NCBI GenBank assembly: GCA_011911785.1
Contig: GCA_011911785.1_4084.1
Origin: a phage
Direction: 5' to 3' (one strand)
Length of the DNA stretch: 64,000 nt
Below the pieces are notes generated by a model. The model was not told the origin of the DNA and did not search any database. It saw nothing but the letters and a program-made list of their open reading frames with translations. Shown piece by piece: positions 1 through 64,000 of this stretch. Within the stretch, counting starts at the first letter, position 1. Each line of letters opens with the position of its first letter. Both the position numbers and the translations under genes were made by a program.

Positions 1-86
1 CTGGAAATAAGTTTTTAAATGGAAGACATAAGTGTAGAATACAAAAGAATAATTTTTATCTTCCAAGTACAATAATCAGTGAAGAT

Positions 87-2126
87 GTGTATTATTTAAA
101 ACTACATTGTAAGCGTGATGGTACATTTAATAACGTGGAAAGTGTTGTTTTCAATTTACAGGCTATTAACGTCATGCATTTTGGGAACATTTCACCATCA
201 GGATTATTGCGTGCCAACAAAGCAACTGTTACATTTGATAGTAAAGAAATATGGGTAACACCTGGATTAACTGTTACCGATGATGAACAGTTATATTGTA
301 TTGGAGACATAGAGTATGGTTCAGATAGTACTTTATTCATTCAAGGCTTCGGTCGTAAACGTCCGTATCAACCAAATGTAGATAGTGCCGTTGACACCAG
401 TCCACGTGTATTCTTCCCCGCTTATCGCTTGCTTGATATAACAGAACAAGATTTACCGTCTCGACATATTACAGGTAAAGCAGCTTACTTACGACCAGAT
501 GACTTAGCGTTTCCGGTTGACGGAATTAATAAAGAAGTTAAAGTTAATATAGTTGATGATACTGGTAAGATTACAAAAAGTGGGCTTTCTTTTAACCCGA
601 ATGGACAATTCTTACAAACATTTTTACATGAATCAGAACCAACTGACGTTTACTTTAAGGTAGAAATCGTAGATATTCTCAAAACCTACAATACACTTTC
701 TGAACGTTTTGCTATTGATCAGCGTTTTAAAGCATATCAAATGTGGGTATGTCCAAACGATGTATCTACTATTGCTGCTACTGATGAAAAACCAAAACCT
801 AATCATTTATATCAATTAAGAGATAACGTTGTGTATCCATATGTTATTAGTGGTGAATATGATGAAGGTATGATCAAACCATTATTCAAAAGTTCTGATT
901 GGAATGATTTGGGTTATTATGATGTGTCATTGGGTAGTGGTATTATTGGTGAAAAGCGTATGTTCCGTTTCTTGGAAAACGCCGCTGAAGGTTCATCTAT
1001 ACAAATAATTACCGATCCTGACTTGGGAACTATACACGTTGGAGAATACTTCGGTCATACAGTATATCCTCAAATACTTACTAATAGTAAGAATCAAGTA
1101 TCTTGTGTATTAGTGGGCGGTGATGACATAACAAAATATGGATTGGATCTTACACCTGATGGGTATCTTGTAGGTACAGCATATGCATTAAGCACTGATT
1201 TTAGTGCCAATGATGATATAAAATTGAATTTCCAGGTTGAAGTTTATGACACTGAAGGTAGTAGTGTTATTGGTGATTTCAAATTAAAAATCGTTCGCGG
1301 GTTGGGGCAAAATCATTTGAGTTCACATATTGTTCCATCTGTTCAATTTGAACGTGAATGGTTTAAATGTATCAGTACTCAAACATTTGCTAATTATGGT
1401 TTCCATCGTCAATCTGATGACAGATATGGTTTACAGAAAGTTCCTAGGATTCTTCTAAAAGAAAACTTTGTTAGTCAAAACTATAATTACACTAACTTAA
1501 ATGATTTGAAAAAAGTTCTCCGTGAGAATATAATAGATCCATCAGGGGCGACAATCCCTAACGGTAAATTCAAGATGGTTATTGGTAATTACAAAATCAT
1601 GTCAGCACTTGACAACAAAGGAAACCTTCTGTATGATTTAGTGTTTAGAGAGTTACATCCAGAAGGAACACAAGTTGCTGTTTCTACCAATCCCAGAATC
1701 TACACAAACGTAGATAACGGACTACTTGCCGAATTATTTGGTTTACGCCAGAATATTTACAAGGCTGTTGGTGAAGACACAACCAACTTGGTAAAAGACC
1801 CAACAGACTTAGTTAACCGTGGGTTATATGTTGATGCTATACCAGGTATAAGTGATGAGATGATTGATACTGTTCCACGCTTCATGAATCATCCATATAT
1901 TGAAGATGGGATTGAGAAAAAATTTATGCCTATCATTCCAGTAGCATACTGCTTACCTGGTAAGGGTGAAGCGTTTTTCCAAATGTTATTACAAAACAAC
2001 GAACATAGTTCAATGGTTAGTACTGAATTTGAAGTAACAGCAGTTGAATTCGGATACTTTGCTCAAGATCATGAGCGTTATGTACATGATACATTTAGAA
2101 TTGCATTACAGAATGATATAATATAA
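87..2126 (+). CDS. hypothetical protein (679 aa)
   Basis: Long ORF with GTG start; in-frame stop at 36-38 upstream; no motif recognised. Confidence 0.6.
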   Translation: MYYLKLHCKRDGTFNNVESVVFNLQAINVMHFGNISPSGLLRANKATVTFDSKEIWVTPGLTVTDDEQLYCIGDIEYGSDSTLFIQGFGRKRPYQPNVDSAVDTSPRVFFPAYRLLDITEQDLPSRHITGKAAYLRPDDLAFPVDGINKEVKVNIVDDTGKITKSGLSFNPNGQFLQTFLHESEPTDVYFKVEIVDILKTYNTLSERFAIDQRFKAYQMWVCPNDVSTIAATDEKPKPNHLYQLRDNVVYPYVISGEYDEGMIKPLFKSSDWNDLGYYDVSLGSGIIGEKRMFRFLENAAEGSSIQIITDPDLGTIHVGEYFGHTVYPQILTNSKNQVSCVLVGGDDITKYGLDLTPDGYLVGTAYALSTDFSANDDIKLNFQVEVYDTEGSSVIGDFKLKIVRGLGQNHLSSHIVPSVQFEREWFKCISTQTFANYGFHRQSDDRYGLQKVPRILLKENFVSQNYNYTNLNDLKKVLRENIIDPSGATIPNGKFKMVIGNYKIMSALDNKGNLLYDLVFRELHPEGTQVAVSTNPRIYTNVDNGLLAELFGLRQNIYKAVGEDTTNLVKDPTDLVNRGLYVDAIPGISDEMIDTVPRFMNHPYIEDGIEKKFMPIIPVAYCLPGKGEAFFQMLLQNNEHSSMVSTEFEVTAVEFGYFAQDHERYVHDTFRIALQNDII

Positions 2127-2139
2127 TAGGAGAAAAAAT

Positions 2140-2448
2140 ATGTTCAATCCATTTTTTGACCCTTCTGGTATGAGTGATAAAGAACTCCAACAAAAGATTA
2201 ATGATCAAAGTTTACGTATTAGTTCCGCTCGTGCCGCTGGCTTGAGTGATTCTATCATTGGTAACATGCAAATAGTACTGAATCAGTGCTATGAAGAAAT
2301 GACTTTACGACAAGGTAGAAAAGAGAAAGACACATACGAAGATACTGATCCATGTATTTTTGATATGAATTCTTATCTATCAGATGAAGAGGATAGTAAA
2401 AAGAAAAATGAAAGTTCAAGGAAACAGATATATAAGTCCCAATGGTGA
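2140..2448 (+). CDS. hypothetical protein (102 aa)
   Basis: ORF preceded by AGGAG RBS (taggagaaaaaatATG). Confidence 0.6.
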   Translation: MFNPFFDPSGMSDKELQQKINDQSLRISSARAAGLSDSIIGNMQIVLNQCYEEMTLRQGRKEKDTYEDTDPCIFDMNSYLSDEEDSKKKNESSRKQIYKSQW

Positions 2449-2926
2449 TGTTAAATGTAATTTGAATGCTGTAGTTTATGCTATGAATTGTGGGTCTGAT
2501 ATACAGTACTTACAATTACAAGATATAGATGAACAAGAGCGTTTGAAGTTTAACGATAACTGTAAAAAATTTGGACTAGAGCAACGTATGTTGGATTATA
2601 CAATTGACCATGATAGTAATCATGAGTTATGGCGTTATGATCCAATGTATGACAATATCAATCTAAGAGAATTCTTTTTACAAAAGTGTTCCACACCTGA
2701 AGCAAGACAGCGTGTGGAATACGAAATTGATTTATACGAACAATATAATATGACAAAGCTATTGCGTTGTATGATATGGTTGGTAGATTATATGGAAGAG
2801 CACAACATCTTCTGGGGCTTAGGGCGTGGTAGTTCTGTAGCCTCATATTGTCTGTTTCTGATTGGTTTGCATATGGTTGACTCATTGAAGTATGATCTCG
2901 ATGTGAACGAATTTCTGAAATGGTAA
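2384..2926 (+). CDS. hypothetical protein (about 170-180 aa)
   Basis: ORF overlapping the previous stop; true start may be 2408 or 2483. Confidence 0.45.
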   Translation: MKRIVKRKMKVQGNRYISPNGDVKCNLNAVVYAMNCGSDIQYLQLQDIDEQERLKFNDNCKKFGLEQRMLDYTIDHDSNHELWRYDPMYDNINLREFFLQKCSTPEARQRVEYEIDLYEQYNMTKLLRCMIWLVDYMEEHNIFWGLGRGSSVASYCLFLIGLHMVDSLKYDLDVNEFLKW

Positions 2927-2984
2927 CGAAACATGTGATATAATGGTTGTTGTGACGTTATAGCACTTAGAAAAGGGATTTTAT

Positions 2985-3347
2985 ATGTCAAAACATACTA
3001 CTTATCGTGGCACTATCATTGATATGGATATGCTAAAATATCAGAACCAACATCAGGTTGCATTGGGTAATGCTAAACTAAATGCTCGTGGTGATAAAAT
3101 TGGTTCTGGTGGAACTGTAATTAAAACTCGTGAAGAACTACTTCAAGAGAAAGAACGTGAAATGCAAATTCCTGACTATATTCCAGAACATCAGGCACAA
3201 AGCACTGATTATTCTGATGATGGTTGGGATGATGCAAGCTTTGAAGTTGAGCATGTCGTTGTACAAAACGAAGAAACAGTTGATCCTTCAGTTGCACCTG
3301 AAGAGAAGAAAGCACCACGCAGAGCAAAAACTAAAGATCAGGAGTAA
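2985..3347 (+). CDS. hypothetical acidic protein (120 aa)
   Basis: ORF with upstream purine-rich RBS. Confidence 0.55.
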   Translation: MSKHTTYRGTIIDMDMLKYQNQHQVALGNAKLNARGDKIGSGGTVIKTREELLQEKEREMQIPDYIPEHQAQSTDYSDDGWDDASFEVEHVVVQNEETVDPSVAPEEKKAPRRAKTKDQE

Positions 3348-10949: not shown

Positions 10950-12047
10950 ATGAACTTAGCAATTCTTCTAATACCAAGTTTGATAGTTGTTCTAATCATG
11001 AAGTTCAAATACCATACTGCCATAACAACAAAGGAATTGCTAATTCATACTGGAATTTGCTTTCTTGCAGCGGTGTTGGTATTGGGAACATCATACTTGA
11101 TAAACTACAGCCAACTTCGTGATGTTGAAATTCTAAATGGTCAGGTTACAGAGAAATACAGCCAACGTGAGAACTGCACATCACAATCAAGTTCTTGTAA
11201 ACACTATACTTGGCATGAGCGTTGCTGGACTACCTATGATTCTAAAGGTCGCTCACAACGTGAATGTGAATCTTATAAGGTATTCGACTATCCGTATGAG
11301 ATTGATTGGTACGTTAAAAGCACTGTTGGTAAGTTTGAGATTGAAAGGGTCAATAGACAAGGAACACAAACTCCACCACGCTGGCAAGAAGTGAAAATTG
11401 GTGATTATGCAGCAGCAGAAAACACATACATAAATTATCTATTTGCAGATAAACACTCATTATTCAGTACTGAAGATTTGATTTCTATGTATGATAAAGA
11501 ATATCTGGAATCTTTACCTGAATATCCAAGTATTAGTGATTATTATAAAACACACCACGTTATTAATAAAACTGATTACGATGTGAGTGGGTATGATGAA
11601 TATTTACGTGAAGTGTTAAAAACATTAGGTGCACAAAAGCAAGTAAACATTCAAGTACTAGTATATGATTATCATGACGTGAATTTTGTTGATGCAGTAA
11701 CCTCAATCTGGCGTGGTGGCAAGAAGAACGATGTGATTATGTTCTTTGGTATCAGTAATGATGGTGTCGTTAAATCATTCAATAGTACGTCATTCGCTAA
11801 AGGTATGAATAATGAAGAATTGCATTCTAAAATGCGAATGGATGCGTTAAATGAAGTATTAACACTTGACTTACTTAAAGTTCAGGTTCATAATATACAG
11901 ACTAAGTTTGAACGTCTGTCGAATAAAGAGTTTGAATACATGGCAGTTAAAATGGAACCACGAAAAGATGTTATGATTGCTGCATCTTTGATTCTCATTG
12001 TACTGTCGATTGTTGTTGGTCTTTATATGAAGGAAAATAATGTATGA
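10950..12047 (+). CDS. membrane protein (N- and C-terminal hydrophobic segments)
   Basis: Start refined to ATG 10950; hydrophobic stretches at both ends. Confidence 0.55.
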   Translation: MNLAILLIPSLIVVLIMKFKYHTAITTKELLIHTGICFLAAVLVLGTSYLINYSQLRDVEILNGQVTEKYSQRENCTSQSSSCKHYTWHERCWTTYDSKGRSQRECESYKVFDYPYEIDWYVKSTVGKFEIERVNRQGTQTPPRWQEVKIGDYAAAENTYINYLFADKHSLFSTEDLISMYDKEYLESLPEYPSISDYYKTHHVINKTDYDVSGYDEYLREVLKTLGAQKQVNIQVLVYDYHDVNFVDAVTSIWRGGKKNDVIMFFGISNDGVVKSFNSTSFAKGMNNEELHSKMRMDALNEVLTLDLLKVQVHNIQTKFERLSNKEFEYMAVKMEPRKDVMIAASLILIVLSIVVGLYMKENNV

Positions 12048-12598
12048 ATAAGCCTCTGATTTTGTTGGTTGGTGTGTTGGTGATTTTTGTTATTGGTGTG
12101 TTTGCAACTGTAAGTATGTATAGTTCAGCACATGATAGTGCAGTGAATTTTGAAGGTAATATTAAAAAGTACTACGATGCATCTGAAAGTCAACTGAGCA
12201 GTTATACACTAACTATTCAAGAAAAGGTTCAAGTATCGGACAAATATAAGGATGCATTGAAAGAGACAATCGAAGCGTACTTTAAGGGACGTGAAGGAGT
12301 TGATCAGAAATTTGTAATGTCACAGATTCAACAACAAGTTCCAAATCTTGATCCTAAGATTTATCAAGAGTTGATGGTTACAATTGATGCAGGGCGTGAG
12401 AAGTTCAATAACTTGCAGAAAATGAAAATTGAACAATGTACTGATTATGAGAAATTCCGTAAAGGTTTCTGGAACTCAAAAATCATCGATTCTAATACAT
12501 TCCCAAGTAAAGATATTGAACATTTGTGTACTGTTGTTTCTGATACTCGCACTAAGAAAGCAATGGAAACTGGTATTCAGGAAGTAATTAAATTGTAA
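12044..12598 (+). CDS. membrane-anchored protein (184 aa)
   Basis: Single N-terminal hydrophobic helix; ATGA overlap with upstream gene. Confidence 0.55.
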   Translation: MNKPLILLVGVLVIFVIGVFATVSMYSSAHDSAVNFEGNIKKYYDASESQLSSYTLTIQEKVQVSDKYKDALKETIEAYFKGREGVDQKFVMSQIQQQVPNLDPKIYQELMVTIDAGREKFNNLQKMKIEQCTDYEKFRKGFWNSKIIDSNTFPSKDIEHLCTVVSDTRTKKAMETGIQEVIKL

Positions 12599-12603
12599 GT
12601 ATT

Positions 12604-12633
12604 TGGGGAGTACATTATTGTACTCCCTTTTTA
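12604..12633 (+). terminator. intrinsic terminator
   Basis: GGGAGTACA-loop-TGTACTCCC hairpin followed by TTTTT. Confidence 0.65.
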
Positions 12634-12647
12634 ATAGGATATAAACT

Positions 12648-13229
12648 ATGTTTTATAATGAAACTCTTAAGTTGTTCGAGCGTATAGCAGAAATCAAAAA
12701 GCGTGCATATGATAATATAATTCTTCCTTATAGTTTTGAATCAGATACTATAATTTTTAAAATGAAACATCATGCTCGTCATTATGAATTTATTTTAGGG
12801 ATAAAAGAACCTAAAATTGAATCCAATGTTCCAAATATATCATCATCTATCGCAGTTCCAAGCGGTGTAAATATTGCCCACGGTCATCCAATGACAATTG
12901 CGGCAACTTCATCCAATACGATTATTGAGCGTTATATTAAAGTTTGTACAACAACAGCTATGCAAAATATCATATCAGTTGAGTGGAGTGAACTACCAAG
13001 TAACTTCATTTACTTCACCAATAGTAATGGTACAACATCTGAGAAAGAATCTATGGGTAATAAGATTATGTCAGCTATGATTCTACATGAAAAAACGCTT
13101 ATCAATGGTGAAATATATTCATTAGAAGACAATCCAGATGCATTTATTAAAGACATTGAGGGTTCCAATAAATTTAGTATTTTAGAAGTATTAAATCTTG
13201 AAAAGGATTATAAACATGCAATACGATAA
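12648..13229 (+). CDS. hypothetical protein (193 aa)
   Basis: ORF following a terminator. Confidence 0.55.
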   Translation: MFYNETLKLFERIAEIKKRAYDNIILPYSFESDTIIFKMKHHARHYEFILGIKEPKIESNVPNISSSIAVPSGVNIAHGHPMTIAATSSNTIIERYIKVCTTTAMQNIISVEWSELPSNFIYFTNSNGTTSEKESMGNKIMSAMILHEKTLINGEIYSLEDNPDAFIKDIEGSNKFSILEVLNLEKDYKHAIR

Positions 13230-13746
13230 TAAAGATCTACCATATCTCCCCGATCTGGAAAGAGGTGTTAATGAGTTCGTTCAGGTAATATCAGAGTGGG
13301 ATGTATCAGTATTTTCATATAATCGTAAGAAGGATTTCGAATATAAAGGCGTTCATTTTTTTATCACGGATAATTTAATAACCCTGCAATCTAAAATAGA
13401 AATGTTTGGATCTTTAGACCCCATATATCGTCAGCCATATTCTGATCCATACAAAGAAAATATTGCAAGAATGTTTGAAAATAGAACAAGACAATATACC
13501 CGAAATTATTTTGGTACTTTCGATTTCACTAAAAAAGGTACATTGGTTGGATATACCATATCAACAGAATCTTTCACATCTATACATAGTGTGATTCTTG
13601 GTGAGAAAAAAATGTTAGTTAATAATGAAGATTGGTTAGACCGTGAAAATTTTCATGAATATGCATTTCAGCATTCTGTAGCAAATCCAAAAGAACCATT
13701 TGATGTGTTCTTTATTTCTAATGTATTAAGAATGTTAGGAGAATAA
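13216..13746 (+). CDS. hypothetical protein (about 176 aa)
   Basis: Start refined to ATG 13216 with RBS aaaggattataaacATG. Confidence 0.5.
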   Translation: MQYDNKDLPYLPDLERGVNEFVQVISEWDVSVFSYNRKKDFEYKGVHFFITDNLITLQSKIEMFGSLDPIYRQPYSDPYKENIARMFENRTRQYTRNYFGTFDFTKKGTLVGYTISTESFTSIHSVILGEKKMLVNNEDWLDRENFHEYAFQHSVANPKEPFDVFFISNVLRMLGE

Positions 13747-13747
13747 T

Positions 13748-14101
13748 ATGTTGATTTACTTATGTGTGCTTTTGGTTTCATTGGTTGTAGCAGTATTAGT
13801 ACTGAAAACTATTTCAACTATTCGTTCTAAAATTGATAAACATCAAGAAAATTCTGTTATCGATTTAGTTATGGATTTTCCTAAAATCAGTGCAGCCGTT
13901 GTTTTTGTTGTTATGTTATTTGGAACATACTGCGTAAAAGGCTACCTCTATGGTATGTATGATTGTAGCGTTCGCTCATATTCACAAGGTGTCGAAACTG
14001 ACTATAGCTGGTACTATGGTAAGTGTCGTTTTAAAAATGAGCATGGTATTTGGGTAGATTTTGATAAACTACGCGGAACACCATCAGGTGATGAAGAATA
14101 A
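13748..14101 (+). CDS. small membrane protein (117 aa)
   Basis: RBS ttaggagaataatATG; two hydrophobic segments. Confidence 0.55.
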   Translation: MLIYLCVLLVSLVVAVLVLKTISTIRSKIDKHQENSVIDLVMDFPKISAAVVFVVMLFGTYCVKGYLYGMYDCSVRSYSQGVETDYSWYYGKCRFKNEHGIWVDFDKLRGTPSGDEE

Positions 14102-14595
14102 TGTTTGAATTTCCTGATGAACAACCAAAAAACTACATTGACTGTACTGAAGATGGATACACGCATATCAATATCTACAGTAAAGGGAAAACTAAGCTAG
14201 GGAGAGATTTATCTAATTTTTCTCCCCATAGCTTTACACTAGAACCATATGGATGGTTTCCTTCGGTTGAGTCTTTTTATTTCTGGTTCCTCACTGGACA
14301 ACAGCATGAAGAACTTAGAAAGGTATCAGGAGCCGCAGCGAAAGCCGCTGCAAACAAATATATGCATGACCGTATAGAGATGACACCTGAGCGATTAAAT
14401 GTAATCCAGGATGCGATATGTGCTAAAATAATGCAGAATCCTGAACTTGCTGAACGATTGCGTAAAAGTACTCTGAAGTTTGAGCATTATTATTTGTATG
14501 GTGGTAAGATTATTGATGTTAGTGATGACCACCGTTGGTTTGTTCAGACCTTTGAGGATATCAGAACAGTACTGAAGGAGATGAATAATGGATAA
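14101..14595 (+). CDS. NADAR-domain protein (YbiA-like)
   Basis: SNF...F...S.E..Y core and C-terminal KF..ELAERL..EHY pattern resembling E. coli YbiA. Confidence 0.55.
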   Translation: MFEFPDEQPKNYIDCTEDGYTHINIYSKGKTKLGRDLSNFSPHSFTLEPYGWFPSVESFYFWFLTGQQHEELRKVSGAAAKAAANKYMHDRIEMTPERLNVIQDAICAKIMQNPELAERLRKSTLKFEHYYLYGGKIIDVSDDHRWFVQTFEDIRTVLKEMNNG

Positions 14596-14863
14596 AGTGA
14601 AAATTTGTTGTCTTGAATGTGAGATGTTTGTCACTCCGTCTGATACAATGTTGACAATAGAGGAACAAGTCTTTCCATTAAGAGGTGGCTATATAAAATT
14701 ACCAACACCATTTTATAGTACATCTTGTTCAATATGTGGTAATGAACTTGTTCTTCATGAGTTGAATCACGTTAATATTATGGTTGTAAATGCAATTAGT
14801 TCGTATGCAAAAGAATTGGTTAGAAATGACAGTTCATTTGCACATTTATGGGGTTTCAACTGA
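14588..14863 (+). CDS. zinc-ribbon small protein
   Basis: Two CxxC pairs (CCLECEM / CSICGNE). Confidence 0.5.
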   Translation: MDKVKICCLECEMFVTPSDTMLTIEEQVFPLRGGYIKLPTPFYSTSCSICGNELVLHELNHVNIMVVNAISSYAKELVRNDSSFAHLWGFN

Positions 14864-14864
14864 T

Positions 14865-15137
14865 ATGAATCATTCAAGAACTTGTTGGATATGTTACAAT
14901 AAGGATGTAGATCATACTCTTGAACTTGAATATATGGAGATGAACTATGCAACAGACGTAAGATCATTTTCTGCTGGTCGTGTTATAATAAAAACACCAC
15001 AATATCAGTGTTTGTGTTCAGTGTGTGGTGGGAATGGTGTATATCGCAATGAGGTTCAAATGGTAAATGATGCTATTGAGCTTTATTTTGGACAATATGT
15101 TTTGGATTTATATAAAAATGAACAAACTAACATTTGA
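14865..15137 (+). CDS. zinc-ribbon small protein (paralog of 14588..14863)
   Basis: Start refined to ATG 14865; CWIC / CSVCGGN pairs. Confidence 0.5.
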   Translation: MNHSRTCWICYNKDVDHTLELEYMEMNYATDVRSFSAGRVIIKTPQYQCLCSVCGGNGVYRNEVQMVNDAIELYFGQYVLDLYKNEQTNI

Positions 15138-15348
15138 TGCAACCCCAATAAATGAACTTTTAGTGCCCAGTGAAGGAAGCACTGTTAAAATGAACATGTA
15201 CTGGATTGTCAAAGATGGAAATGTATTCAGACATAAAATAACAAAAGTATGGCAATGTAACAAAAATGAAAGTATTGTTAAGATGATAGCTAATACTGTA
15301 GATGGTGCTGAAGTTGTTTTTATGCCGTATGCATATATTAAGGAATAA
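15118..15348 (+). CDS. hypothetical protein (76 aa)
   Basis: Start refined to ATG 15118. Confidence 0.45.
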   Translation: MNKLTFDATPINELLVPSEGSTVKMNMYWIVKDGNVFRHKITKVWQCNKNESIVKMIANTVDGAEVVFMPYAYIKE

Positions 15349-15350
15349 AC

Positions 15351-15527
15351 ATGAAAAAAGAGTTGACAATATTCGTCATTCCAACTATAATGTTGATATT
15401 GGCTCTGGTGTTCCCACAATCACATGTGGTTATGCTTAACATCATAGAACTAATTTTATTGGTAATACACTGTATTGTCTGTTACTATTACATTAACAGT
15501 AATGAGGATCGTGATGAAGTATTATAA
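15351..15527 (+). CDS. possible small hydrophobic protein (58 aa)
   Basis: Untracked ORF with RBS aggaataaacATG; two predicted hydrophobic helices; overlaps a promoter-like motif. Confidence 0.3.
   Translation: MKKELTIFVIPTIMLILALVFPQSHVVMLNIIELILLVIHCIVCYYYINSNEDRDEVL
15363..15391 (+). promoter_or_regulatory. sigma70-like promoter (possibly internal)
   Basis: TTGACA, 17 nt, TATAAT. Confidence 0.45.
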
Positions 15528-15936
15528 AATTCGTATCATTACCAGTTCAGGGGCATCAGCGTGGATTTTTTATGATCTTCCAGATTCATATACCATCGAT
15601 GATGTAAAAGATTTATACTACGAAGATAACAATTGGGTTTTTGATTTAGAATCCAAAAGTGTAGAGATTGATGAGATTACTGAACAAGAATACAAGATTG
15701 GCACACAAGCTATGAAGTACTTTGAACGTAATCTTAAAATGTTACAGGAAAATGTGTTCCCTGTAAAAGAATGGGCAATTCTCCTTGCTAATTCCAATAA
15801 ACCTGTTAGAATTGGTTATCCAAACTTTCATATGGTATATCGTATGAATGAAAATCGTGAATTGAGTTATCAATTTGATTACGATGCTGCTAAGTTTGGT
15901 GTTCTGAAATCGTTTGAAAAGGCATATCCAGTATGA
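15514..15936 (+). CDS. hypothetical protein (140 aa)
   Basis: Start refined to ATG 15514 with RBS aatgaggatcgtgATG. Confidence 0.55.
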   Translation: MKYYKIRIITSSGASAWIFYDLPDSYTIDDVKDLYYEDNNWVFDLESKSVEIDEITEQEYKIGTQAMKYFERNLKMLQENVFPVKEWAILLANSNKPVRIGYPNFHMVYRMNENRELSYQFDYDAAKFGVLKSFEKAYPV

Positions 15937-16268
15937 GTAAAGATAGCAAAGAGTTTATGTTGCGTTGTACTTGTGGTGATAAAAATGAACATTGTGTTCA
16001 CATTGCACAATTTGACTTGACAGAAGAACACGGTGATGATAAACTTGGTCAATGTACAGTCAGTATGCGTTTGAATCCTTTTCTTAAATGGTACAAGCGT
16101 GTATGGGTTGCAGTGAAGTATGTTTTTGGTCGCAATGACTTTCATTACGTAGAAGCTGAAATTGATGTTGACATTCTTAAAGAAGTTGTGTTACAATTAG
16201 ATGATACACGAACTGATGAGGAAAAGAAAGACGCACGAAATAAACGTAGTGATGTGAAGGTTTTATGA
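15933..16268 (+). CDS. hypothetical Cys/His-rich protein (111 aa)
   Basis: CTCGDKNEHCVH motif; ATGA overlap. Confidence 0.5.
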   Translation: MSKDSKEFMLRCTCGDKNEHCVHIAQFDLTEEHGDDKLGQCTVSMRLNPFLKWYKRVWVAVKYVFGRNDFHYVEAEIDVDILKEVVLQLDDTRTDEEKKDARNKRSDVKVL

Positions 16269-16459
16269 ACGTCGAGTTGATTGAAAAAAAGTACTGTACA
16301 AATTGCAATACAGCGTATACAATACAAGGTATGTTAGTTTGTACAACATGTCAGGCAACAGAAACAGCAACATTTTTGGTTGATGACCGATTCAGTGATT
16401 TGAAACAATTCAAAGCTAATCGCAATCTCCGTAACTTTAGTGATATGAATAAGGAATGA
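16265..16459 (+). CDS. zinc-ribbon small protein (64 aa)
   Basis: CTNCNTAY...CTTCQ two CxxC pairs. Confidence 0.5.
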   Translation: MNVELIEKKYCTNCNTAYTIQGMLVCTTCQATETATFLVDDRFSDLKQFKANRNLRNFSDMNKE

Positions 16460-16893
16460 ATATGAATCTTGAACAAGTAATCCGTAACAACCCATTCTTC
16501 GCAGAAAACCCTTCTCGTGTAATTGAAGCGATTAAAGTTGAAGAGCTAATGATTACCGTCAAATATAAAGAAGAAGGTGATGAAATTAGTAGCGTAGTAT
16601 GTGCTCTTCGTGCACCTTTCCGTAAAGAAGCAGCTAAGAAACCAGCATATGTACTATCTATCTGCTTGGGTTGTGTAGTTAAACTGGTTGTTGATGAAAA
16701 TAGTTTCAACATCAAGGTTGCACCAACTAATGATGATGAGAATGTTGATCTCAACTTTGATGGTGGGTTGCCAGAAGAAGAATTCTTCCAACAGTCACTT
16801 GTTGTAGATTTCCGTTCAGTAACTTATGACCATATCAAACTAATCAATGAAATGGTTGATATCGTCGCTAAGTTCGAAGAAGAAACCGCATAA
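16456..16893 (+). CDS. EEYFQ-motif family protein (family A)
   Basis: C-terminal PEEEFFQQSLVVDF...YDHIKLINEMV. Confidence 0.65.
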   Translation: MNMNLEQVIRNNPFFAENPSRVIEAIKVEELMITVKYKEEGDEISSVVCALRAPFRKEAAKKPAYVLSICLGCVVKLVVDENSFNIKVAPTNDDENVDLNFDGGLPEEEFFQQSLVVDFRSVTYDHIKLINEMVDIVAKFEEETA

Positions 16894-16904
16894 TATAAAA
16901 AGAA

Positions 16905-16938
16905 ATAAGGCTCTCAATCGGGAGCCTTATATTCATTT
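16905..16938 (+). terminator. putative intrinsic terminator
   Basis: AGGCTCTC-loop-GGGAGCCT hairpin then T-rich. Confidence 0.5.
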
Positions 16939-16970
16939 GTTAAATAAGACAAAGTAAAGGAGTACTTAAT

Positions 16971-17522: not shown

Positions 17523-17631
17523 TTATGCCAGTAATGGCTAACATATTATTATGTTATTTTTCCTCCCTTCTATAATAAAATTAATTTATTATATTTTCCA
17601 TTTCTTATTGTACATTTTATATCTTTTCGTA

Positions 17632-17655
17632 CTGCCCCTCCCAGGGGCATTTTTT
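17632..17655 (+). terminator. intrinsic terminator
   Basis: TGCCCC-loop-GGGGCA hairpin followed by TTTTTT. Confidence 0.6.
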
Positions 17656-17670
17656 ATATTAGGATAAAGT

Positions 17671-30288: not shown

Positions 30289-30320
30289 ATGAGTACTGCA
30301 AGCAGTACTCATTTTTTTTA
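30289..30320 (+). terminator. intrinsic terminator
   Basis: TGAGTACTGC-AA-GCAGTACTCA hairpin followed by TTTTTTTT. Confidence 0.7.
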
Positions 30321-32474: not shown

Positions 32475-33412
<938 letters not shown>

Positions 33413-34554: not shown

Positions 34555-34587
<33 letters not shown>

Positions 34588-34645: not shown

Positions 34646-34879
<234 letters not shown>

Positions 34880-46067: not shown

Positions 46068-46319
46068 ATGAATCTCGATGTGGTGAAATCATTAACTGAA
46101 GCTTTACAGAAAAATGAAGTCCAATGTCAAGAACTACGTGACACTATTAAGGTTGAATACGCTCGACTTCAAGGTATGTTACAAGAATCAGAATGGGTAG
46201 TTACTAAAAGCATCGAAGGTATCTACAAAGATATCGAATCAATGTTCAATAAGAAAAGTAAGATTGAATCAGATTCTTTTAATAAACGTAAAGAACTAAA
46301 TGCAGTTTTAGGTATCTAA
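46068..46319 (+). CDS. hypothetical protein (83 aa)
   Basis: RBS aaaggagggacacatATG. Confidence 0.6.
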   Translation: MNLDVVKSLTEALQKNEVQCQELRDTIKVEYARLQGMLQESEWVVTKSIEGIYKDIESMFNKKSKIESDSFNKRKELNAVLGI

Positions 46320-46323
46320 GTAC

Positions 46324-46353
46324 TTGACAGTACTGAAAATATAGGAGTACAAT
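46324..46353 (+). promoter_or_regulatory. sigma70-like promoter
   Basis: TTGACA, 18 nt, TACAAT. Confidence 0.5.
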
Positions 46354-48050: not shown

Positions 48051-49013
48051 GTGAAGAAACTAGACTTAAACGCAATTTCCGAAGAAGTACTGGATGAATG
48101 TTTTGCGAATGAAGAAGTCAATCCATTGGAAGCAATTGAACCATCAGAAGTTATTGAAGATGATATTCCACATAAAGTTCGTAGTAAAAGTAACATTAGT
48201 CTCAAGCGTCCAGTAGGTGTGACTAATGAATCCATCATCGAAGAGATTCGTGCTGGAATTAATGTAAAAAAGAACACTGACCTATTACTTCGTTATAACT
48301 ATGGTATGATCGTTGATGTTGCTTCAAAGTGTACATGTTATATTCCGTTTGAAGATAAAATTGCATATGGTGTAGAAGGTTTTATGCGAGCACTTAAAAC
48401 CTTTGATCTTAGTAAGAATGTCAAATTCATTACATATGCAACAACGTCCGTTTATATGACTATGTATAATGAAAGTTCAGATGCAAATTACATGGTGTAC
48501 TTACCACGTTATATGAGCGTTCATAACATCCAAGTACGTCGATTTAATGAATCATATCAACGTGAACACGGTAAGCGACCTACACCAGAATTAATCTCTG
48601 AGAGTACTGGTATCGAGCTTCAGCACGTTAAGAACTGTTTGTTATACCAGAATGCATATACGACTCTTGATGCACAACTGGGTTCAGATTCAGACGGAAC
48701 CCTTGGGGATATTCTGAGTTCATCTGCTCGTGATTATAACCTTAATGTTGATAGCATTTGTAATCCATTACGTTATGCAATCACAGAAATCATTGACGAA
48801 TTGAGTACTAAAGAACGAGAAATTATCATGCGTGTTCATGGTCTGGGGGATTACAAAGCAGAAACCCTTCGTGAAATTTCTGATAATGGATATGTTGATG
48901 ATAAAGGAAACATTGTTAAGTCCCGTTCATCTGTGCACCGAAAATATAGTGAAGCTATTCAAAAGCTTAAAAAAATAGTACTTGAAAAAGGGTACGAATA
49001 CGAAGATTTCTAA
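48051..49013 (+). CDS. RNA polymerase sigma factor, sigma70 family
   Basis: Region 2-like GFMRALKTFDLSKNVKFITYATTSVYMTM (cf. GLMRAVEKFD...FSTYATWWIRQ); region 4-like HTH STKEREIIMRVHGLGDYKAETLREIS. Confidence 0.8.
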   Translation: MKKLDLNAISEEVLDECFANEEVNPLEAIEPSEVIEDDIPHKVRSKSNISLKRPVGVTNESIIEEIRAGINVKKNTDLLLRYNYGMIVDVASKCTCYIPFEDKIAYGVEGFMRALKTFDLSKNVKFITYATTSVYMTMYNESSDANYMVYLPRYMSVHNIQVRRFNESYQREHGKRPTPELISESTGIELQHVKNCLLYQNAYTTLDAQLGSDSDGTLGDILSSSARDYNLNVDSICNPLRYAITEIIDELSTKEREIIMRVHGLGDYKAETLREISDNGYVDDKGNIVKSRSSVHRKYSEAIQKLKKIVLEKGYEYEDF

Positions 49014-51459: not shown

Positions 51460-51487
51460 TTGACAGAAGATATCAGTACTGTATAAT
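51460..51487 (+). promoter_or_regulatory. sigma70-like promoter (GTATAATGTTTAT class)
   Basis: TTGACA, 16 nt, TG-TATAAT; downstream GTTTATATCAAA box shared with 51808 and 62687. Confidence 0.65.
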
Positions 51488-51532
51488 GTTTATATCAAAC
51501 GAAATCCACTTTAACAAATGATAGGAAATATT

Positions 51533-55633: not shown

Positions 55634-55894
55634 ATGGCAGTAGGGTTTGGTTCACCAGATAACCACCAAGAAACGATACAAGCAACTATTGATAATGCTA
55701 TTGACTTTGCTCGCTCAAATCTGTATAGTGGTGAGTCTGAAGAGTACTGCATCGACTGTGACTGTGAGATACCAGAGAAGCGGAGGTTAGTACTGAAGGG
55801 TGTAAAACGATGTGTTCAGTGTCAATCAAAGGTTGACAAGGTATATCAAGAGCGTTATAATAGACGTGGAAGTAAAGACAGCCAACTCCGTTAA
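55634..55894 (+). CDS. TraR/DksA-family C4 zinc-finger protein
   Basis: CIDCDCEIPEKRRLVLKGVKRCVQCQ matches the C4 finger pattern of TraR/DksA proteins. Confidence 0.55.
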   Translation: MAVGFGSPDNHQETIQATIDNAIDFARSNLYSGESEEYCIDCDCEIPEKRRLVLKGVKRCVQCQSKVDKVYQERYNRRGSKDSQLR

Positions 55895-60187: not shown

Positions 60188-61726
60188 ATGCCAGATAATT
60201 TTAAATCAAAAAGTGGGGCAACACTTTCTGGACATTCGGAGAAATGGGCTGAAAAAAATCGTCGCCAATCAAGTCATGACGCAGGTCAAGGTTCCCGTGG
60301 CTCTCGCAACCAAGGAACGGGAGAAGCGGGGAAAGCAAACACAGTTGCATCACAGGGTCTTGATACTTCAAACATGTCCCAGCATGAAAAATTGAAGTAC
60401 TTCAATAGTCTTGGTCTTTTAAATCCGCAGCAGAAGCAACAACTTGCTGCTCTGGATAAAGCACAAGAACAACCTAAAGCAGCACCTGAAGCACCTGCAC
60501 AGCCTAAAGCGGCTAATCCGGTAAAAGAACTAAGTGATAAACTTGGGAAGATCTTTGCTAACAAACCACAACTAATTCAAGGTATCGTAAAAGCACTTCA
60601 AGCGGTTCCTAAAGAACAACTCAAGGATAAAGCACAAGCTGTTCTTGATAGTATGAAAGGGAATACCAGTACTGAACCAACTGAAGTATTCAGTACTATC
60701 ATGCGTGCACTTGAAGGTAAGCCACAGGCTGATGATGATATTGAGTTTGATGAACCTGCACAAGAAGTAGCAAATCTTGACTCAATCGTTTCTACATTTG
60801 GAAAAATTGGTGCAGAAGATAAGACTAATGCACAACAAGTTAAGAATGTACAAGCTAAGTTACAAAATCGTCTTGAAGGTAAAGATGAAAAGATTAAACT
60901 TGCAGCAGATGCGTTGAAGAAAGCATTAGAATCATATAAACCTGGTGAGAAATCTCGCTTCATTACTGCAATGAATGCAGTATTCGGTGCAATGAAGAAG
61001 TATGAAGCTGAACACGGTGAGAAAGTAACTCCTGATGGATATCTCCTTCGCAAAGATGAAGAAGGTGCTGTTGACCAGAAGAACGCTGAACCAGACTATA
61101 GTGATTTACCGGATACAGTTGATATGGATGGATACATTCATCGTCCTGATATGCAAGAATTTGGTTCAGACAAAGAAGGTTTTGAACATGCTATGGCTGT
61201 GTACAAAGCATTAGTCGATAATCCACAATATGCAAATAGTTTTGTAGATGAGTTTGATAGTGCATGGAACAACTACCAAGACAAAGGATATGATTTCCCA
61301 GCAGAAGCAGCATTCTTTGAACTAGGTAAACTTCTTGCTAAAAATGGTATTAATGTTGGTTCTAATGGTGAAGCAAACACTTCGGAAATGGACGCTGAAT
61401 TGGCTAAAGATCGTAAAATGACTGATAAGTCAATTCATGAACTACAAAAGCTAATGATGTGGATTGCTGAAATTGGCAAGAAAGCTGGTGCAGATCCTAA
61501 GAGCATTAACAGCAATATTAGTTGGATTAAACATAAGGTTGATAACAATGCCCGTAAATTACAAAAGGCATGGACCGACCTAGTGAATGGTGCAGACGAT
61601 GTTGATATCGATTCACCAGAAGCATACGAGTACGCATTGAACACACTTGATAACTCTTTCCAGGATTACGAAAATGGTAACGTAACTGATTGGGAAAAGG
61701 ATATCATGCATAAGTACGGTAAATGA
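60188..61726 (+). CDS. large low-complexity K/E/A/Q-rich protein (about 512 aa)
   Basis: Start taken as ATG 60188 (RBS ggagaaaaaaATG); Gly/Ser/Gln-rich N-terminus, PKAAPEAPAQPKAANP repeat-like stretch; locally higher GC. Confidence 0.6.
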   Translation: MPDNFKSKSGATLSGHSEKWAEKNRRQSSHDAGQGSRGSRNQGTGEAGKANTVASQGLDTSNMSQHEKLKYFNSLGLLNPQQKQQLAALDKAQEQPKAAPEAPAQPKAANPVKELSDKLGKIFANKPQLIQGIVKALQAVPKEQLKDKAQAVLDSMKGNTSTEPTEVFSTIMRALEGKPQADDDIEFDEPAQEVANLDSIVSTFGKIGAEDKTNAQQVKNVQAKLQNRLEGKDEKIKLAADALKKALESYKPGEKSRFITAMNAVFGAMKKYEAEHGEKVTPDGYLLRKDEEGAVDQKNAEPDYSDLPDTVDMDGYIHRPDMQEFGSDKEGFEHAMAVYKALVDNPQYANSFVDEFDSAWNNYQDKGYDFPAEAAFFELGKLLAKNGINVGSNGEANTSEMDAELAKDRKMTDKSIHELQKLMMWIAEIGKKAGADPKSINSNISWIKHKVDNNARKLQKAWTDLVNGADDVDIDSPEAYEYALNTLDNSFQDYENGNVTDWEKDIMHKYGK

Positions 61727-62686: not shown

Positions 62687-62714
62687 TTGACAAACTCAAC
62701 TAGTACTGTATAAT
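62687..62714 (+). promoter_or_regulatory. sigma70-like promoter (GTATAATGTTTAT class)
   Basis: TTGACA, 16 nt, TG-TATAAT, then GTTTATCAAG. Confidence 0.65.
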
Positions 62715-63316: not shown

Positions 63317-63327
63317 GGATAACTTAT

Positions 63328-63504
63328 ATGAAACTACGTACTCGCAATCGTTTGATGGATGAACTGTACCACGAACGCTATACATTGAATGAAGTAAAGC
63401 GTCAGTTAATGCATACCTATCAGTTACCAGCCCGTGCAGCGAAACAACGTGCTAACGAATTGCTGAAAGAAGCAATCGAGTACTGGGAATCTGATTCGTA
63501 CTAA
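63328..63504 (+). CDS. small hypothetical protein (58 aa)
   Basis: Untracked ORF, RBS taaggataacttatATG. Confidence 0.45.
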   Translation: MKLRTRNRLMDELYHERYTLNEVKRQLMHTYQLPARAAKQRANELLKEAIEYWESDSY

Positions 63505-63543
63505 TATTACGTGATATGTCACGTTAATTAAGTGAGGCGATAA

Positions 63544-63795
63544 ATGAAAATTTTATTAGTTCTAATACTACTAATTGTTTTACCATTTACTTTAGTATCC
63601 CCTGAACTTGCATGGAATGTGTTTGTGTACTTAGTATGTACTATTGTAGTAAATGGTATCTTGTTCTTAGTTCTATTCATAAATGGAATAGGACACGGTG
63701 GAGGATGGACCAGTACTGCTGATATTGTACATAAAACCACTATGTCTTTATTTGTAGTGTGGAATTTATTCTGGACTTGGTTTGTGTTCTTCTAA
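63544..63795 (+). CDS. multi-pass membrane protein (83 aa)
   Basis: RBS taagtgaggcgataaATG; hydrophobic helices. Confidence 0.55.
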   Translation: MKILLVLILLIVLPFTLVSPELAWNVFVYLVCTIVVNGILFLVLFINGIGHGGGWTSTADIVHKTTMSLFVVWNLFWTWFVFF

Positions 63796-63803
63796 TTAAA
63801 AAT

Positions 63804-64000
63804 ATGAATATAGATTTGAAAGGTGCAACCAGAACTGTTATCCTTATTGGGGATTATGCTATCAAGATTCCAACCTTCAAAAGCTGGAAGTTATTCCTAA
63901 CTGGAATGATAGCTAACCTCAATGAACGCTCATGGATGCAGTACTCCAAGCGTAGTGACAGTGGGATATGTCCTACTCTGTGGTCATCGCGAACTGGCTT
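63804..64000 (+). CDS. hypothetical protein (3' end beyond window)
   Basis: ORF from ATG 63804 runs off the window end. Confidence 0.4.
   Translation, partial: MNIDLKGATRTVILIGDYAIKIPTFKSWKLFLTGMIANLNERSWMQYSKRSDSGICPTLWSSRTG

Follow-up and report, generated by a model that had tools for sequence, protein, structure and literature searches.

Chi, which is GCTGGTGG in E. coli and a 5- to 8-mer elsewhere, is read by RecBCD or AddAB and serves as a self signal in the processing of DNA ends; it is asymmetric and skewed with the direction of replication. The uptake sequences of Neisseria (DUS) and Haemophilus (USS) are asymmetric, exact 9- to 12-mers that occur about once per kb in all frames, sometimes as pairs in terminator stems, and mark self DNA for a specific machine with a known receptor in the natural transformation of bacteria. 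KOPS and the architecture-imparting polar sequences are over-represented, skewed over a whole replichore and strictly controlled in orientation near a special locus, where they give direction. DnaG-type primases recognise 3 to 5 bases, and the primase sites are 5'-GTC in T7, 5'-GTT or 5'-GCT in T4 and 5'-CTG for E. coli DnaG. Here, we analysed the palindrome AGTACT in 64,000 nucleotides of phage DNA, referred to as the window, and in related genomes. At 98.5% identity, the window matches Escherichia phage A4 (Asteriusvirus, ~355 kb). AGTACT is present at about 5 to 10 times the chance level across one whole group of giant phages, an excess that would call for some viral machinery to read the word. 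No earlier report of this enrichment was found in the literature.

A first-pass annotation of the window had estimated by eye about 150 copies of AGTACT against about 20 expected, with about 40 of them in the 8-mer CAGTACTG. Exact counting bears these figures out: there are 162 copies of AGTACT, 38 of CAGTACTG and five of TTCAGTACTGAA, while 21 copies of AGTACT are expected from base composition and 17, 32 and 61 from Markov models of order 1, 2 and 3, respectively. No other 6-mer in the window has a higher z-score (z = 23 against order 2). Each 4-kb bin across the window holds 5 to 16 copies, and the copies lie in coding sequence in all frames, as had been claimed (53, 37 and 45 in frames 0, 1 and 2), with 25 more in intergenic DNA and two in the single minus-strand gene. 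Nearly all genes of the window run in one direction. The density is 3.1 per kb in non-coding and 2.45 per kb in coding DNA, and AGTACT shows no preference for gene starts or gene ends in the window. The intervals are a little more regular than Poisson (coefficient of variation, CV, 0.85 versus 0.99±0.08), and this slight evenness was counted in favour of a signal in replication or recombination. Close pairs are not in excess (14 observed, 15.7 expected).

The annotation had named a ratio of observed to expected near 1, once codon and dinucleotide bias are modelled, as grounds for giving up the enrichment. The ratio stays far from 1, because coding sequence holds 137 copies compared with 37.1±5.6 (maximum 54) in 300 shuffles that permute synonymous codons and keep every protein and the codon usage of each gene, and because 55 of the 104 Ser-Thr dipeptides are written AGT-ACT when 13.5 are expected. 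Moreover, the amino-acid pairs themselves have moved toward the motif, with 104 Ser-Thr against 67 expected and 160 Val-Leu against 112. The word is exact, as the target of an enzyme would be: AGTACA, AGTACG and AGTACC occur 42, 19 and 11 times, and the single-mismatch neighbours stand at about 1 to 2 times expectation, none above 2.4 times. Symmetry extends to the flanking bases (72 copies have C at -1, 80 have G at +1), and the non-palindromic forms are balanced by strand (72 AGTACV, 79 BGTACT). Since the genome otherwise heavily depletes palindromes, this excess is conspicuous. In the window, 26 of the 64 six-base palindromes are missing, GGTACC and CGTACG among them, and GCGC is absent where 31 are expected, which agrees with the annotation's argument that enrichment of a palindrome in a phage suggests a positive function. 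The enrichment is real and not compositional, and it reflects positive selection acting on DNA.

The promoter spacers, terminator stem and extended perfect palindromes listed by the annotation are all present, and are given in Table 1 with further copies. At 32490, CAGTACTG stands at an offset of -7 relative to the -10 hexamer, and early promoters of phages A4 and CBB repeat this offset. Promoter positions hold 8 of the 162 copies in the window; the other 154 lie elsewhere, and 137 of the 162 are inside genes. Pairing in a terminator is rare, with one clear case in the window.

Table 1 Features of the window that carry AGTACT or bear on its reading.
Feature	Position	Strand	Remarks
Dispersed AGTACT array	1..64000	.	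162 sites, 38 as CAGTACTG; median spacing 308 bp
Promoter-type copy CAGTACTGTATAATG	32490..32504	+	CAGTACTG immediately 5' of a TATAAT -10; pattern search
Promoter-type copy CAGTACTGTATAATG	32899..32913	+	Pattern search
Promoter-type copy CAGTACTGTATAATG	51474..51488	+	Pattern search
Promoter-type copy AGTACTGTATAAT	62702..62714	+	Pattern search
Two copies flanking a -35-like TTGACA (AGTACTTGACAGTACT)	46319..46334	+	Copies 10 bp apart
Terminator-like hairpin ATGAGTACTGC-AA-GCAGTACTCAT	30289..30320	+	AGTACT in each arm (30292, 30304), then a T-run
14-bp perfect palindrome ATTCAGTACTGAAT	34571..34584	.	Intergenic
16-bp perfect palindrome TATTCAGTACTGAATA	34691..34706	.	Intergenic
12-bp perfect palindrome TTCAGTACTGAA	36493..36504	.	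Another CAGTACTG 35 bp downstream
16-bp perfect palindrome ATTGAAGTACTTCAAT	60391..60406	.	
DNMT3-like C5 cytosine methyltransferase, 286 aa	21440..22300	+	Context only; Pfam PF00145, DNMT3A/B structure matches

The A4 genome holds at least 889 copies. The enrichment is common to all genera of the Rak2-like jumbo phages, taken here as Asteriusvirus, Alcyoneusvirus, Mimasvirus and Eneladusvirus. Every locus with a clamp loader at least 74% identical has 1.8 to 2.7 copies per kb; these loci come from phages of Escherichia, Klebsiella, Cronobacter, Pectobacterium and Serratia, and one is listed under Xanthomonas. Relatives whose clamp loader is 29 to 38% identical have only 0 to 0.7 per kb, and Vibrio phage ICP1 shows no enrichment. 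In E. coli there are 3 copies in 50 kb, about 40 times fewer than in the phage. Because density is high among the close relatives and low in both the distant ones and E. coli, the reader of the word would appear to follow the phage clade and not the host. A phi92-like coliphage avoids AGTACT, which is among its most avoided 6-mers (0 against 18.3 expected, and 1 against 14.4). Of 81 sites that align with phAPEC6, 50 (62%) have kept their place, where all 6-mers give 28% and flank identity predicts 32%; where a site is lacking, the aligned sequence is most often AGTATT. In the clamp-loader gene, the genera carry AGTACT at partly different codons. The sites are thus under purifying selection, with turnover.

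Outside the window, AGTACT is densest, with about 7 copies per kb, in the terminal-repeat/early region of both A4 and CBB, and its density drops to 1.6 per kb in late genes; minus-strand genes have a similar density. The host Chi word is also enriched and oriented in this region; A4 has eight copies on the top strand and none on the bottom, where about 0.1 is expected. The small genes of the terminal repeat are preceded by a near-consensus sigma70 promoter and a 5' stem-loop. In these promoters AGTACT occupies two fixed offsets from the -10 hexamer, -7 and -27 to -30, and the paired copies, about 20 to 22 bp apart, bracket the -35 in an arrangement kept between two genera. In the early region of A4, 20 of 48 promoter-like sequences have AGTACT at -7 and 12 have it near -28; in the terminal repeat of CBB the corresponding numbers are 13 and 21 of 47.

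One region of A4 carries the word on a single strand. Between 31.6 and 38.9 kb there are no copies of AGTACT, 46 of AGTACA (about 10 expected) and none of TGTACT; as pentamers, AGTAC occurs 56 times and GTACT not once, with about 7 expected. The words lie in all frames of unrelated ORFs. A promoter at about 31.3 kb precedes the long operon whose non-template strand carries them. The zone is also found in phAPEC6 and ph0011, and merely about one third of it aligns between genomes. Adjoining it, a stretch with a paralogous gene family (25.3-29.7 kb) has the reversed polarity, with 9 against 2 sites only. Neither the rest of A4 nor the first 40 kb of CBB showed a comparable zone. Because AGTAC stands at 56 and GTACT at 0, the zone suggests that the functional unit is strand-specific, (C)AGTAC, which is hard to square with a plain dimer site or a symmetric target of methylation. 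The annotation had proposed a binding site or a modification target; the positive selection on DNA that this implies is observed, while the symmetric forms of the proposal sit poorly with the one-strand zone.

We tentatively favour the reading that AGTACT, extended to CAGTACTG, is a positively selected cis-acting signal specific to the Rak2-like clade, read in its strand-specific form (C)AGTAC(W) by a factor that the clade encodes, most likely in replication or recombination. The palindrome would be an economical way to put the word on both strands in one hexamer, and both strands do matter, even though nearly all genes run in the same direction. A phage-encoded reader that acts on single strands would require closely spaced signals on any strand that becomes exposed, either for priming or helicase loading on a single-stranded template or as a phage-specific equivalent of Chi. 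The terminal repeat, with the densest signal, is where recombination-dependent replication would start and where the host Chi sites concentrate; the two fixed positions in its early promoters may double as an operator. According to annotation, these phages encode a T4-like primase (the gp61-like A4_45 in A4), helicases, UvsX/UvsY and a gp46/47-like nuclease. More specifically, and with somewhat greater reserve, (C)AGTAC may be a self word of these phages, read strand-specifically by a replication or recombination enzyme; CAGTACTG would then have evolved as two strands in one and been built into the terminal-repeat early promoters, and the one-strand zone would indicate that a fork or enzyme always travels in one direction beside the repeat. 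Several points count against the favoured reading. With primases that recognise 3 to 5 bases, and with AGTAC expected by chance roughly once per kb on each strand, it is hard to see why so strong an enrichment should be needed. If the reader is a primase or resembles that of Chi, wrong-strand copies should be neutral, yet GTACT has been purged from the zone. The few sites behind the reversed polarity of the neighbouring stretch, and the lack of a comparable zone in the rest of A4 and the first 40 kb of CBB, also weigh against it. Furthermore, the promoter pair at fixed positions around the -35 resembles the classical operators of a dimeric protein that binds double strands, and the exact symmetry of the 8-mer would suit such a protein as well.

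Such a binder, phage-encoded or delivered with the virion, is a possible if rather unlikely alternative. AGTACT would be its operator or nucleation site, and the protein would repress or tune early promoters and coat or organise the AT-rich genome, for instance in protection, in countering H-NS silencing or in compaction. The exact palindrome, its symmetric flanks and its near-expectation neighbours agree with this, as do the two promoter positions, roughly two helical turns apart, and the peak of density in the DNA that is expressed earliest; the virion of phAPEC6 contains an inner body, and its proteins might be injected along with the DNA. However, promoter positions account for just 18 to 24% of early-region copies and for the small minority already noted in the window, and could have come with the duplication of promoter/stem-loop cassettes. 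A symmetric dimer also leaves unexplained a 7-kb zone that has AGTACA but no TGTACT and is purged of the other-strand pentamer. No candidate DNA-binding protein was found in the window.

We consider it improbable that AGTACT is a target of DNA modification by the phage, a dense mark that would separate phage from host DNA, shield it from AGTACT-specific restriction and perhaps switch early promoters by methylation state. The specificity resembles that of a type II enzyme, phages do encode DNA methyltransferases, and host DNA has far fewer sites. To judge from the avoidance by the phi92-like phage, restriction at AGTACT probably does occur within the host range, and about 900 sites need some protection. 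Protection would lift counter-selection without explaining the enrichment or the conservation in place, and neither the neutrality nor the counter-selection expected of a restriction target is seen. GTAC as a whole is evidently unprotected, because GGTACC and CGTACG are still absent. A one-strand zone is unexpected for a symmetric methylation site. The annotation had also asked whether the phage methyltransferase targets AGTACT, which the comparison does not uphold. The A4 annotation lists only two DNA methyltransferases, and neither tracks the enrichment. The DNMT3-like C5 enzyme, whose closest solved structures are DNMT3A/B, was rejected as the writer: it has homologues in phages that are unenriched (ICP1) or avoid the word (BME3), and the RaK2 paper reports m5C at CpG in RaK2 DNA. 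The other, a small Dam-family enzyme (PF05869), is widespread in phages. No AGTACT-specific methylase, endonuclease or binding protein was recognised among the annotated phage genes, most phage genes being unannotated.

It is more doubtful still that AGTACT is a transcriptional signal, either a promoter element for the phage sigma factor or an ops-type pause or antitermination signal read on the non-template strand. The fall in density from early to late genes, the promoter association in the terminal repeat and the position of the one-strand word in a long operon would suit it, and the window contains a sigma70-family gene. Against a reading at the level of the transcript or the non-template strand, AGTACT is far above AGTACA, AGTACG and AGTACC although transcription is one-directional, so that the antisense copy must be selected too. 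The sites are unrelated to gene starts and ends, minus-strand genes are similar in density, and the zone next to the one-strand zone is reversed in polarity under the same direction of transcription.

That the excess has no function, and comes from biased mutation or repair, from codon or dinucleotide bias or from repeated cassettes that have spread, is very improbable. Early-region promoter/stem-loop cassettes are repeated and carry the motif, and AGTATT is the variant most often aligned to a site. However, the codon-preserving shuffles, the placement in unrelated genes and all frames, the conservation above background, the shifted amino-acid pairs and the single orientation of one region contradict it, and the neighbours are not depleted, unlike under a drive of the very-short-patch-repair type. 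A role as decoys for the host nucleoid-occlusion protein SlmA (site GTGAGTACTCAC), blocking host cell division, which would make good the annotation's idea of a host protein, can practically be dismissed: the core is shared and SlmA is conserved in enterobacteria, but according to PMC3020112 SlmA needs G and T in the first two positions and a purine in the third, whereas the phage sites prefer C at position 3 (G in only 16 of 162), have no GT preference at 1-2, and include one full match in 64 kb; GTNAGTACTNAC and GAGTACTC occur once each in the window.

Comparison with known systems places AGTACT as follows. With the SlmA site it shares an identical central hexamer, in flanks where the bases that SlmA requires are missing or disfavoured. 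The type II site of ScaI and Eco255I is the identical sequence, with enzyme-like precision and avoidance by another coliphage; restriction targets are avoided or neutral, AGTACT is enriched and conserved, no cognate enzyme was found here, and the phage methyltransferases point to other specificities. The pairs bracketing the -35 resemble paired phage operators and the stem-loop cassettes of T4 early promoters, but operators are few and confined to promoters, while more than 75% of AGTACT copies are inside genes throughout a 355-kb genome; a fixed position relative to -35 and -10 exists only in the terminal-repeat/early promoters of A4 and CBB. KOPS are comparable to the one-strand zone in their controlled orientation, but their strand skew is absent from the window, and a palindrome carries no directional information. 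AGTACT may, like DUS and USS, mark self DNA and can pair in a terminator stem, but frequent inverted terminator pairs are absent, and a lytic phage has no uptake step. Primase sites may be likened to AGTAC as words read on a single-stranded template by a phage-encoded enzyme at short lagging-strand intervals. AGTAC contains GTA, which we take to resemble the GTT of T4, and the polarity of the one-strand zone would fit a rightward fork leaving the promoter at about 31.3 kb. Primase sites are not visibly enriched in their own genomes, unlike AGTACT, and we know of nothing in primase systems that explains the purging of a word from the other strand. Chi and AGTACT are both short exact words, in several-fold genome-wide excess independent of coding and frame, and conserved; Chi clusters in the same phage region where AGTACT is densest. 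To our knowledge, host RecBCD does not recognise AGTACT and no reader of the RecBCD/AddAB type is known in Rak2-like phages; none is noted in the A4 annotation. Orientation matters for Chi, and it may for AGTACT, which is palindromic over most of the genome and strictly one-stranded only in the A4 zone and its homologues. If a likeness to Chi as a self signal in DNA-end processing, or to primase sites, holds, (C)AGTAC would do in these phages what Chi, or a long site for a primase or loader, does elsewhere.

The hexamer AGTACT occurs 162 times in the window, where base composition predicts 21 copies and Markov models of order 1, 2 and 3 predict 17, 32 and 61, respectively, and no other 6-mer there deviates as strongly. 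The longer forms CAGTACTG and TTCAGTACTGAA occur 38 and 5 times. Exact counting therefore bears out the over-representation reported in the first-pass annotation, and all of the examples named there are present. The sites are scattered across the whole window, the median distance between neighbours being 308 bp, and are spaced slightly more evenly than at random (CV 0.85 against 0.99 ± 0.08). Neither an excess of close pairs nor a preference for gene starts, gene ends or a location within genes was found in the window. The sole flank preference is symmetric: C precedes 72 of the 162 sites and G follows 80. Phages had been expected to deplete short palindromes, and avoidance in this genome is unusually strong: 26 of the 64 six-base palindromes are missing from the window, among them nearly all of those with at least four G/C, and GCGC (0 against 31 expected), GGCC (13 against 41) and CTAG (74 against 136) are also below expectation. 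AGTACT, at 9.6 times its expectation, is the lone strong exception. Mild enrichment can be noticed for GATATC (40 against 20 expected) and GTGCAC (17 against 9).

A crude gene call, with 128 genes of which all except one are on the plus strand, assigns 53, 37 and 45 sites to frames 0, 1 and 2 and 25 to intergenic DNA, in agreement with the earlier claim that sites fall in all coding frames. The densities of coding (2.45 per kb) and non-coding DNA (3.1 per kb) are similar. When synonymous codons were shuffled gene by gene, leaving the proteins and the codon usage of each gene intact, 37.1 ± 5.6 coding sites remained of the 137 observed, and shuffling the codon order left 19.5 ± 4.5. Together with the Markov expectations, these shuffles rule out composition, dinucleotide bias or codon bias as the cause, and the excess stands. 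Ser-Thr pairs are written AGT-ACT in 55 of 104 cases, where codon usage predicts 13.5, and Val-Leu pairs appear as GTA-CTN 68 times, against 31 expected. The dipeptides themselves are also in excess in the proteins of the window (ST, 104 against 67 expected; VL, 160 against 112), while the reversed pairs are not (TS, 65 against 67; LV, 108 against 112); selection for AGTACT has shifted protein composition. A drive by repair of the very-short-patch type is unlikely, because the single-mismatch neighbours of AGTACT are found at 0.3 to 2.4 times expectation in the window, without depletion. Selection acting on the DNA itself maintains AGTACT, preferably as CAGTACTG.

This maintenance extends throughout the genomes of one jumbo-phage clade, the Rak2-like phages (Asteriusvirus, Alcyoneusvirus, Mimasvirus and Eneladusvirus). 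Escherichia phage A4 (ON286972.1), a 355.5-kb Asteriusvirus and kin of PBECO4, 121Q and phAPEC6, matches the window at 98.5% identity from its position 271,205 and serves here as a whole-genome proxy. In an alignment of the window with phAPEC6 (32.9 kb, 78% identity), 50 of 81 aligned sites (62%) are kept in place, compared with 28% for all 6-mers and 32% predicted from local flank identity, and per-base identity is 0.85–0.90 within AGTACT against 0.79 in the flanks. The clamp-loader gene, aligned for seven phages of four genera, has one AGTACT that is common to members of three genera. The remaining sites are group-specific and the codons bearing them differ between genera, so that sites are gained and lost while their overall density persists. 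Samples of 40–50 kb from A4, phAPEC6, RaK2, GAP32, CBB, Serratia phage BF and XbC2 contain 91–111 copies each. All IMG/VR loci with a clamp loader at least 74% identical to that of the window have 38–56 copies per 17–21 kb; relatives with a clamp loader 29–38% identical have 0–15, mostly 0–5. There are 3 copies in a 50-kb sample of E. coli K-12, and 8 in 50 kb of Vibrio phage ICP1, where about 15 are expected. As counts are high in all close relatives and low in distant relatives, ICP1 and E. coli, enrichment tracks the phage clade across host genera. Two samples of about 50 kb from the phi92-like coliphage BME3 contain 0 and 1 copies (18.3 and 14.4 expected), and AGTACT ranks with the most avoided 6-mers of this phage. 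Such negative selection is expected if an AGTACT-specific restriction exists in the host range. Eco255I is a ScaI isoschizomer from E. coli.

The regional counts in A4, including the minimum implied at 100–150 kb, add up to at least 889 sites, and enrichment is present whether genes are early, middle or late and whichever strand they are coded on. Long conserved genes have a lower density. The major capsid gene lies within a 2.6-kb AGTACT-free gap, one of the longest in that 50-kb stretch.

Coordinates of features and AGTACT counts. A4 expectations come from dinucleotide shuffles, except where marked; L-numbers are the loci used for coordinates.
Feature	Sequence	Position	AGTACT observed	AGTACT expected
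Genome segment	A4	1–50 kb	229	16.5
Genome segment	A4	50–100 kb	147	13.6
Genome segment	A4	100–150 kb	at least 94 (133 strand-matches of CAGTACT)	5.8 (strand-matches of CAGTACT)
Genome segment, late genes, many on minus strand	A4	150–200 kb	78	14.6
Genome segment	A4	200–250 kb	106	14.7
Genome segment	A4	250–271 kb	28	5.4
Genome segment	A4	271–321 kb	107	about 12 (order-1 Markov)
Genome segment	A4	321–355 kb	100	11.0
Early cassette region	A4 (L094)	1–25260		
Early cassette region	CBB (L101)	1–22456		
First AGTACT-free stretch	A4	25261–29749	0	
Second AGTACT-free stretch (one-strand zone)	A4	31581–38869	0	
Major capsid gene	A4 (L098)	15170–16345	0	
AGTACT-free gap around capsid gene	A4 (L098)	14249–16889	0	
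Seven 'putative DNA condensation protein' genes	A4 (L100)	24902–33619		
C5 cytosine methyltransferase with intein	A4 (L001)	21443–23341		
C5 cytosine methyltransferase, 286 aa	window	21440–22300		
Six-tRNA cluster	window	31777–35217		
Sigma70-family sigma factor, regions 2, 3 and weak 4	window	48051–49013		
Small DksA/TraR-type zinc-finger protein	window	55634–55894		

The density of AGTACT is maximal in the terminal repeat, with about 7 copies per kb in the first 25.3 kb of A4 and in the annotated 22.5-kb terminal repeat of CBB. This early region is composed of repeated cassettes, each with a near-consensus sigma70-type promoter, a G/C-rich 5' stem-loop and a tiny ORF, and is reminiscent of the promoter-early stem-loop cassettes of T4. 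In the early promoters of both A4 and CBB, phages of different genera with different hosts, AGTACT has two fixed places separated by 20–22 bp. The first copy adjoins the -35 element (AGTACTTGCAA or AGTACTATTGACA) and is found in 12 of 48 promoter-like sequences in A4 and 21 of 47 in CBB. The second lies one base upstream of the -10 element (AGTACTGTATAAT in A4, AGTACTTTATAAT in CBB) and is found in 20 of 48 and 13 of 47, respectively. The two-copy arrangement is essentially confined to the early/terminal-repeat regions, and even there just 18–24% of AGTACT copies are promoter-associated. In the window, AGTACT is not a general promoter or terminator element, as it has no positional preference and promoter positions account for 8 of the 162 sites.

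Host Chi, GCTGGTGG, is strongly enriched in these phages and is almost always on the top (gene) strand. There are 3 top-strand and no bottom-strand copies in the window (at 3425, 49246 and 58600), and 8 and none in the early/terminal-repeat region of A4 (11726–24022), where about 0.1 are expected. The corresponding numbers are 9 and 3 in CBB (L101), 9 and 2 in phAPEC6 (L103) and 9 and 1 in ph0011 (L105). The enrichment and co-orientation of Chi at the terminal repeat suggest that these phages exploit host RecBCD there.

Just past the early region, A4 has two AGTACT-free stretches, at 25.3–29.7 kb and 31.6–38.9 kb. In the latter, the one-strand zone, the palindrome is replaced by AGTACA (46 copies, about 10 expected), together with 6 AGTACG and 4 AGTACC; the top strand has 56 AGTAC and 0 GTACT (about 7 expected). 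These AGTAC sites, whose one-strand form is CAGTACAG, are found in all three frames and in ORFs that are mostly unrelated to one another. The same zone in phAPEC6 and in the more distant ph0011 has 8–16 AGTACA and 0–5 GTACT per 2.5 kb, and its occurrence in three independently sequenced genomes rules out a sequencing artefact. Only about one third of the zone can be aligned between genomes; the one-strand property is therefore that of the region and not of particular genes, and no recognisable function was found for the genes of the zone. Recent foreign DNA is rejected as the origin of the AGTACT-free islands, as the second matches only Asteriusviruses in the phage collection and bears the one-strand form. 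The first stretch has the reverse polarity (9 GTACT against 2 AGTAC), which is weak evidence because it consists of a paralogous small-gene family. Every gene in both stretches is on the top strand, so polarity does not depend on which way the genes are transcribed. A sigma70-like promoter with overlapping AGTACT copies (about 31.30–31.34 kb) lies immediately upstream of the one-strand zone. No comparable zone was found in A4 150–200 kb, A4 321–355 kb or the first 40 kb of CBB, and A4 100–150 kb has a mild strand bias (47:20). The zone shows that selection acts on the word on a single strand and can also act against the complement of the word. This is evidence against both a simple symmetric dimer site and a methylation target that is symmetric.

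We tentatively favor a strand-specific AGTACT signal used in replication or recombination. The word could serve as a priming or loading site, or could alternatively be a phage-specific Chi-like word. According to their annotation, these phages encode a T4-like primase, helicases, UvsX/UvsY and a gp46/47-like nuclease. The AGTACT peak is located where a terminally redundant genome would start its recombination-dependent replication, and host Chi is concentrated there too.

The main rival is a dimeric DNA-binding regulator or a genome-coating protein that binds AGTACT. This would be the best account of the promoter architecture, but it leaves the one-strand zone unexplained, and we consider it rather unlikely. 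It can hold together with a replication or recombination signal, as the two are not mutually exclusive. The flanks of AGTACT exclude a decoy for SlmA, whose site, GTGAGTACTCAC, needs G and T at positions 1–2 and a purine at position 3 (PMC3020112); phage sites favor C at position 3 and have no GT, and the window has one full match. No DNA-binding domains were found in the proteins near the sigma-factor gene of the window. A4 has seven tandem paralogous genes on the minus strand that are annotated 'putative DNA condensation protein', beside a kelch-like gene. A neighboring gene has a weak RCC1-like match, and the label probably goes back to 'regulator of chromosome condensation' repeats, not to a DNA-condensing activity.

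That AGTACT is a modification target seems improbable to us. Other phages in the same host range avoid AGTACT, and a phage enriched in it must therefore protect about 900 potential restriction targets. The first-pass annotation had suggested checking whether the phage methyltransferase or host enzymes target AGTACT, an idea that fails for the phage C5 enzyme. Its closest solved relatives are the catalytic domains of DNMT3A/B, CpG is absent from AGTACT, and homologues with 46–50% identity are found in ICP1, which is not enriched, and in BME3, which avoids the site. Methylated CpG was found by bisulfite sequencing in RaK2, as stated in the RaK2 paper (data not shown). In A4 the C5 methyltransferase has a 1038-bp intein (Hint and LAGLIDADG) near the catalytic motif, which the window copy lacks; the intein has no AGTACT, and two nearby AGTACT sites of the window are missing in A4. 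The sole other annotated DNA methyltransferase of A4 is a 173-aa Dam-family protein (PF05869), and enzymes of this type are common among phages. Protection does not extend to GTAC as such, because GGTACC and CGTACG remain absent from the window, and this N6-adenine enzyme has no support as the writer. In the literature searched, nothing on this clade mentions enrichment of AGTACT or CAGTACTG, digestion with ScaI or a methylome; ten enzymes other than ScaI cut fEgEco12 DNA as predicted.

The sigma factor and the DksA/TraR-type protein of the window likely modify host RNA polymerase. A transcription-coupled signal is very improbable. The palindrome is favored over AGTACA, AGTACG and AGTACC even where genes all point one way; the reading thus involves both strands, and this speaks against a signal at the RNA level or one coupled purely to transcription. 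Six tRNA genes (Ser-tga, Gly-tcc, Ser-gct, Met, Asn and Thr) form a cluster in the window, and the spacers around it hold the longest perfect palindromes as well as AGTACT sites.

In these 350-kb phages, about 83% of genes are without known function, and we know of nothing reported on their replication, recombination or DNA marking. AGTACT is under selection in all genera of the clade, and this selection is so strong that it affects codon choice and even which amino acids are paired. The word is a direct handle on a core mechanism and can be used as bait for finding its reader. It is a rare case of an enriched palindrome in an otherwise palindrome-avoiding genome and a simple signature for spotting the clade in metagenomes, and it constrains the recoding and engineering of these therapeutic-candidate phages.

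AGTACT behaves similarly to the over-represented functional words of bacteria, such as Chi, uptake sequences and polar architecture sequences. It differs from each known family that can be tested in at least one defining feature. Chi and KOPS are not palindromes, whereas the motif is one over most of the genome. Operators are restricted to regulatory DNA and restriction targets are avoided, neither of which is true of AGTACT, and the SlmA site has flanks that AGTACT lacks.
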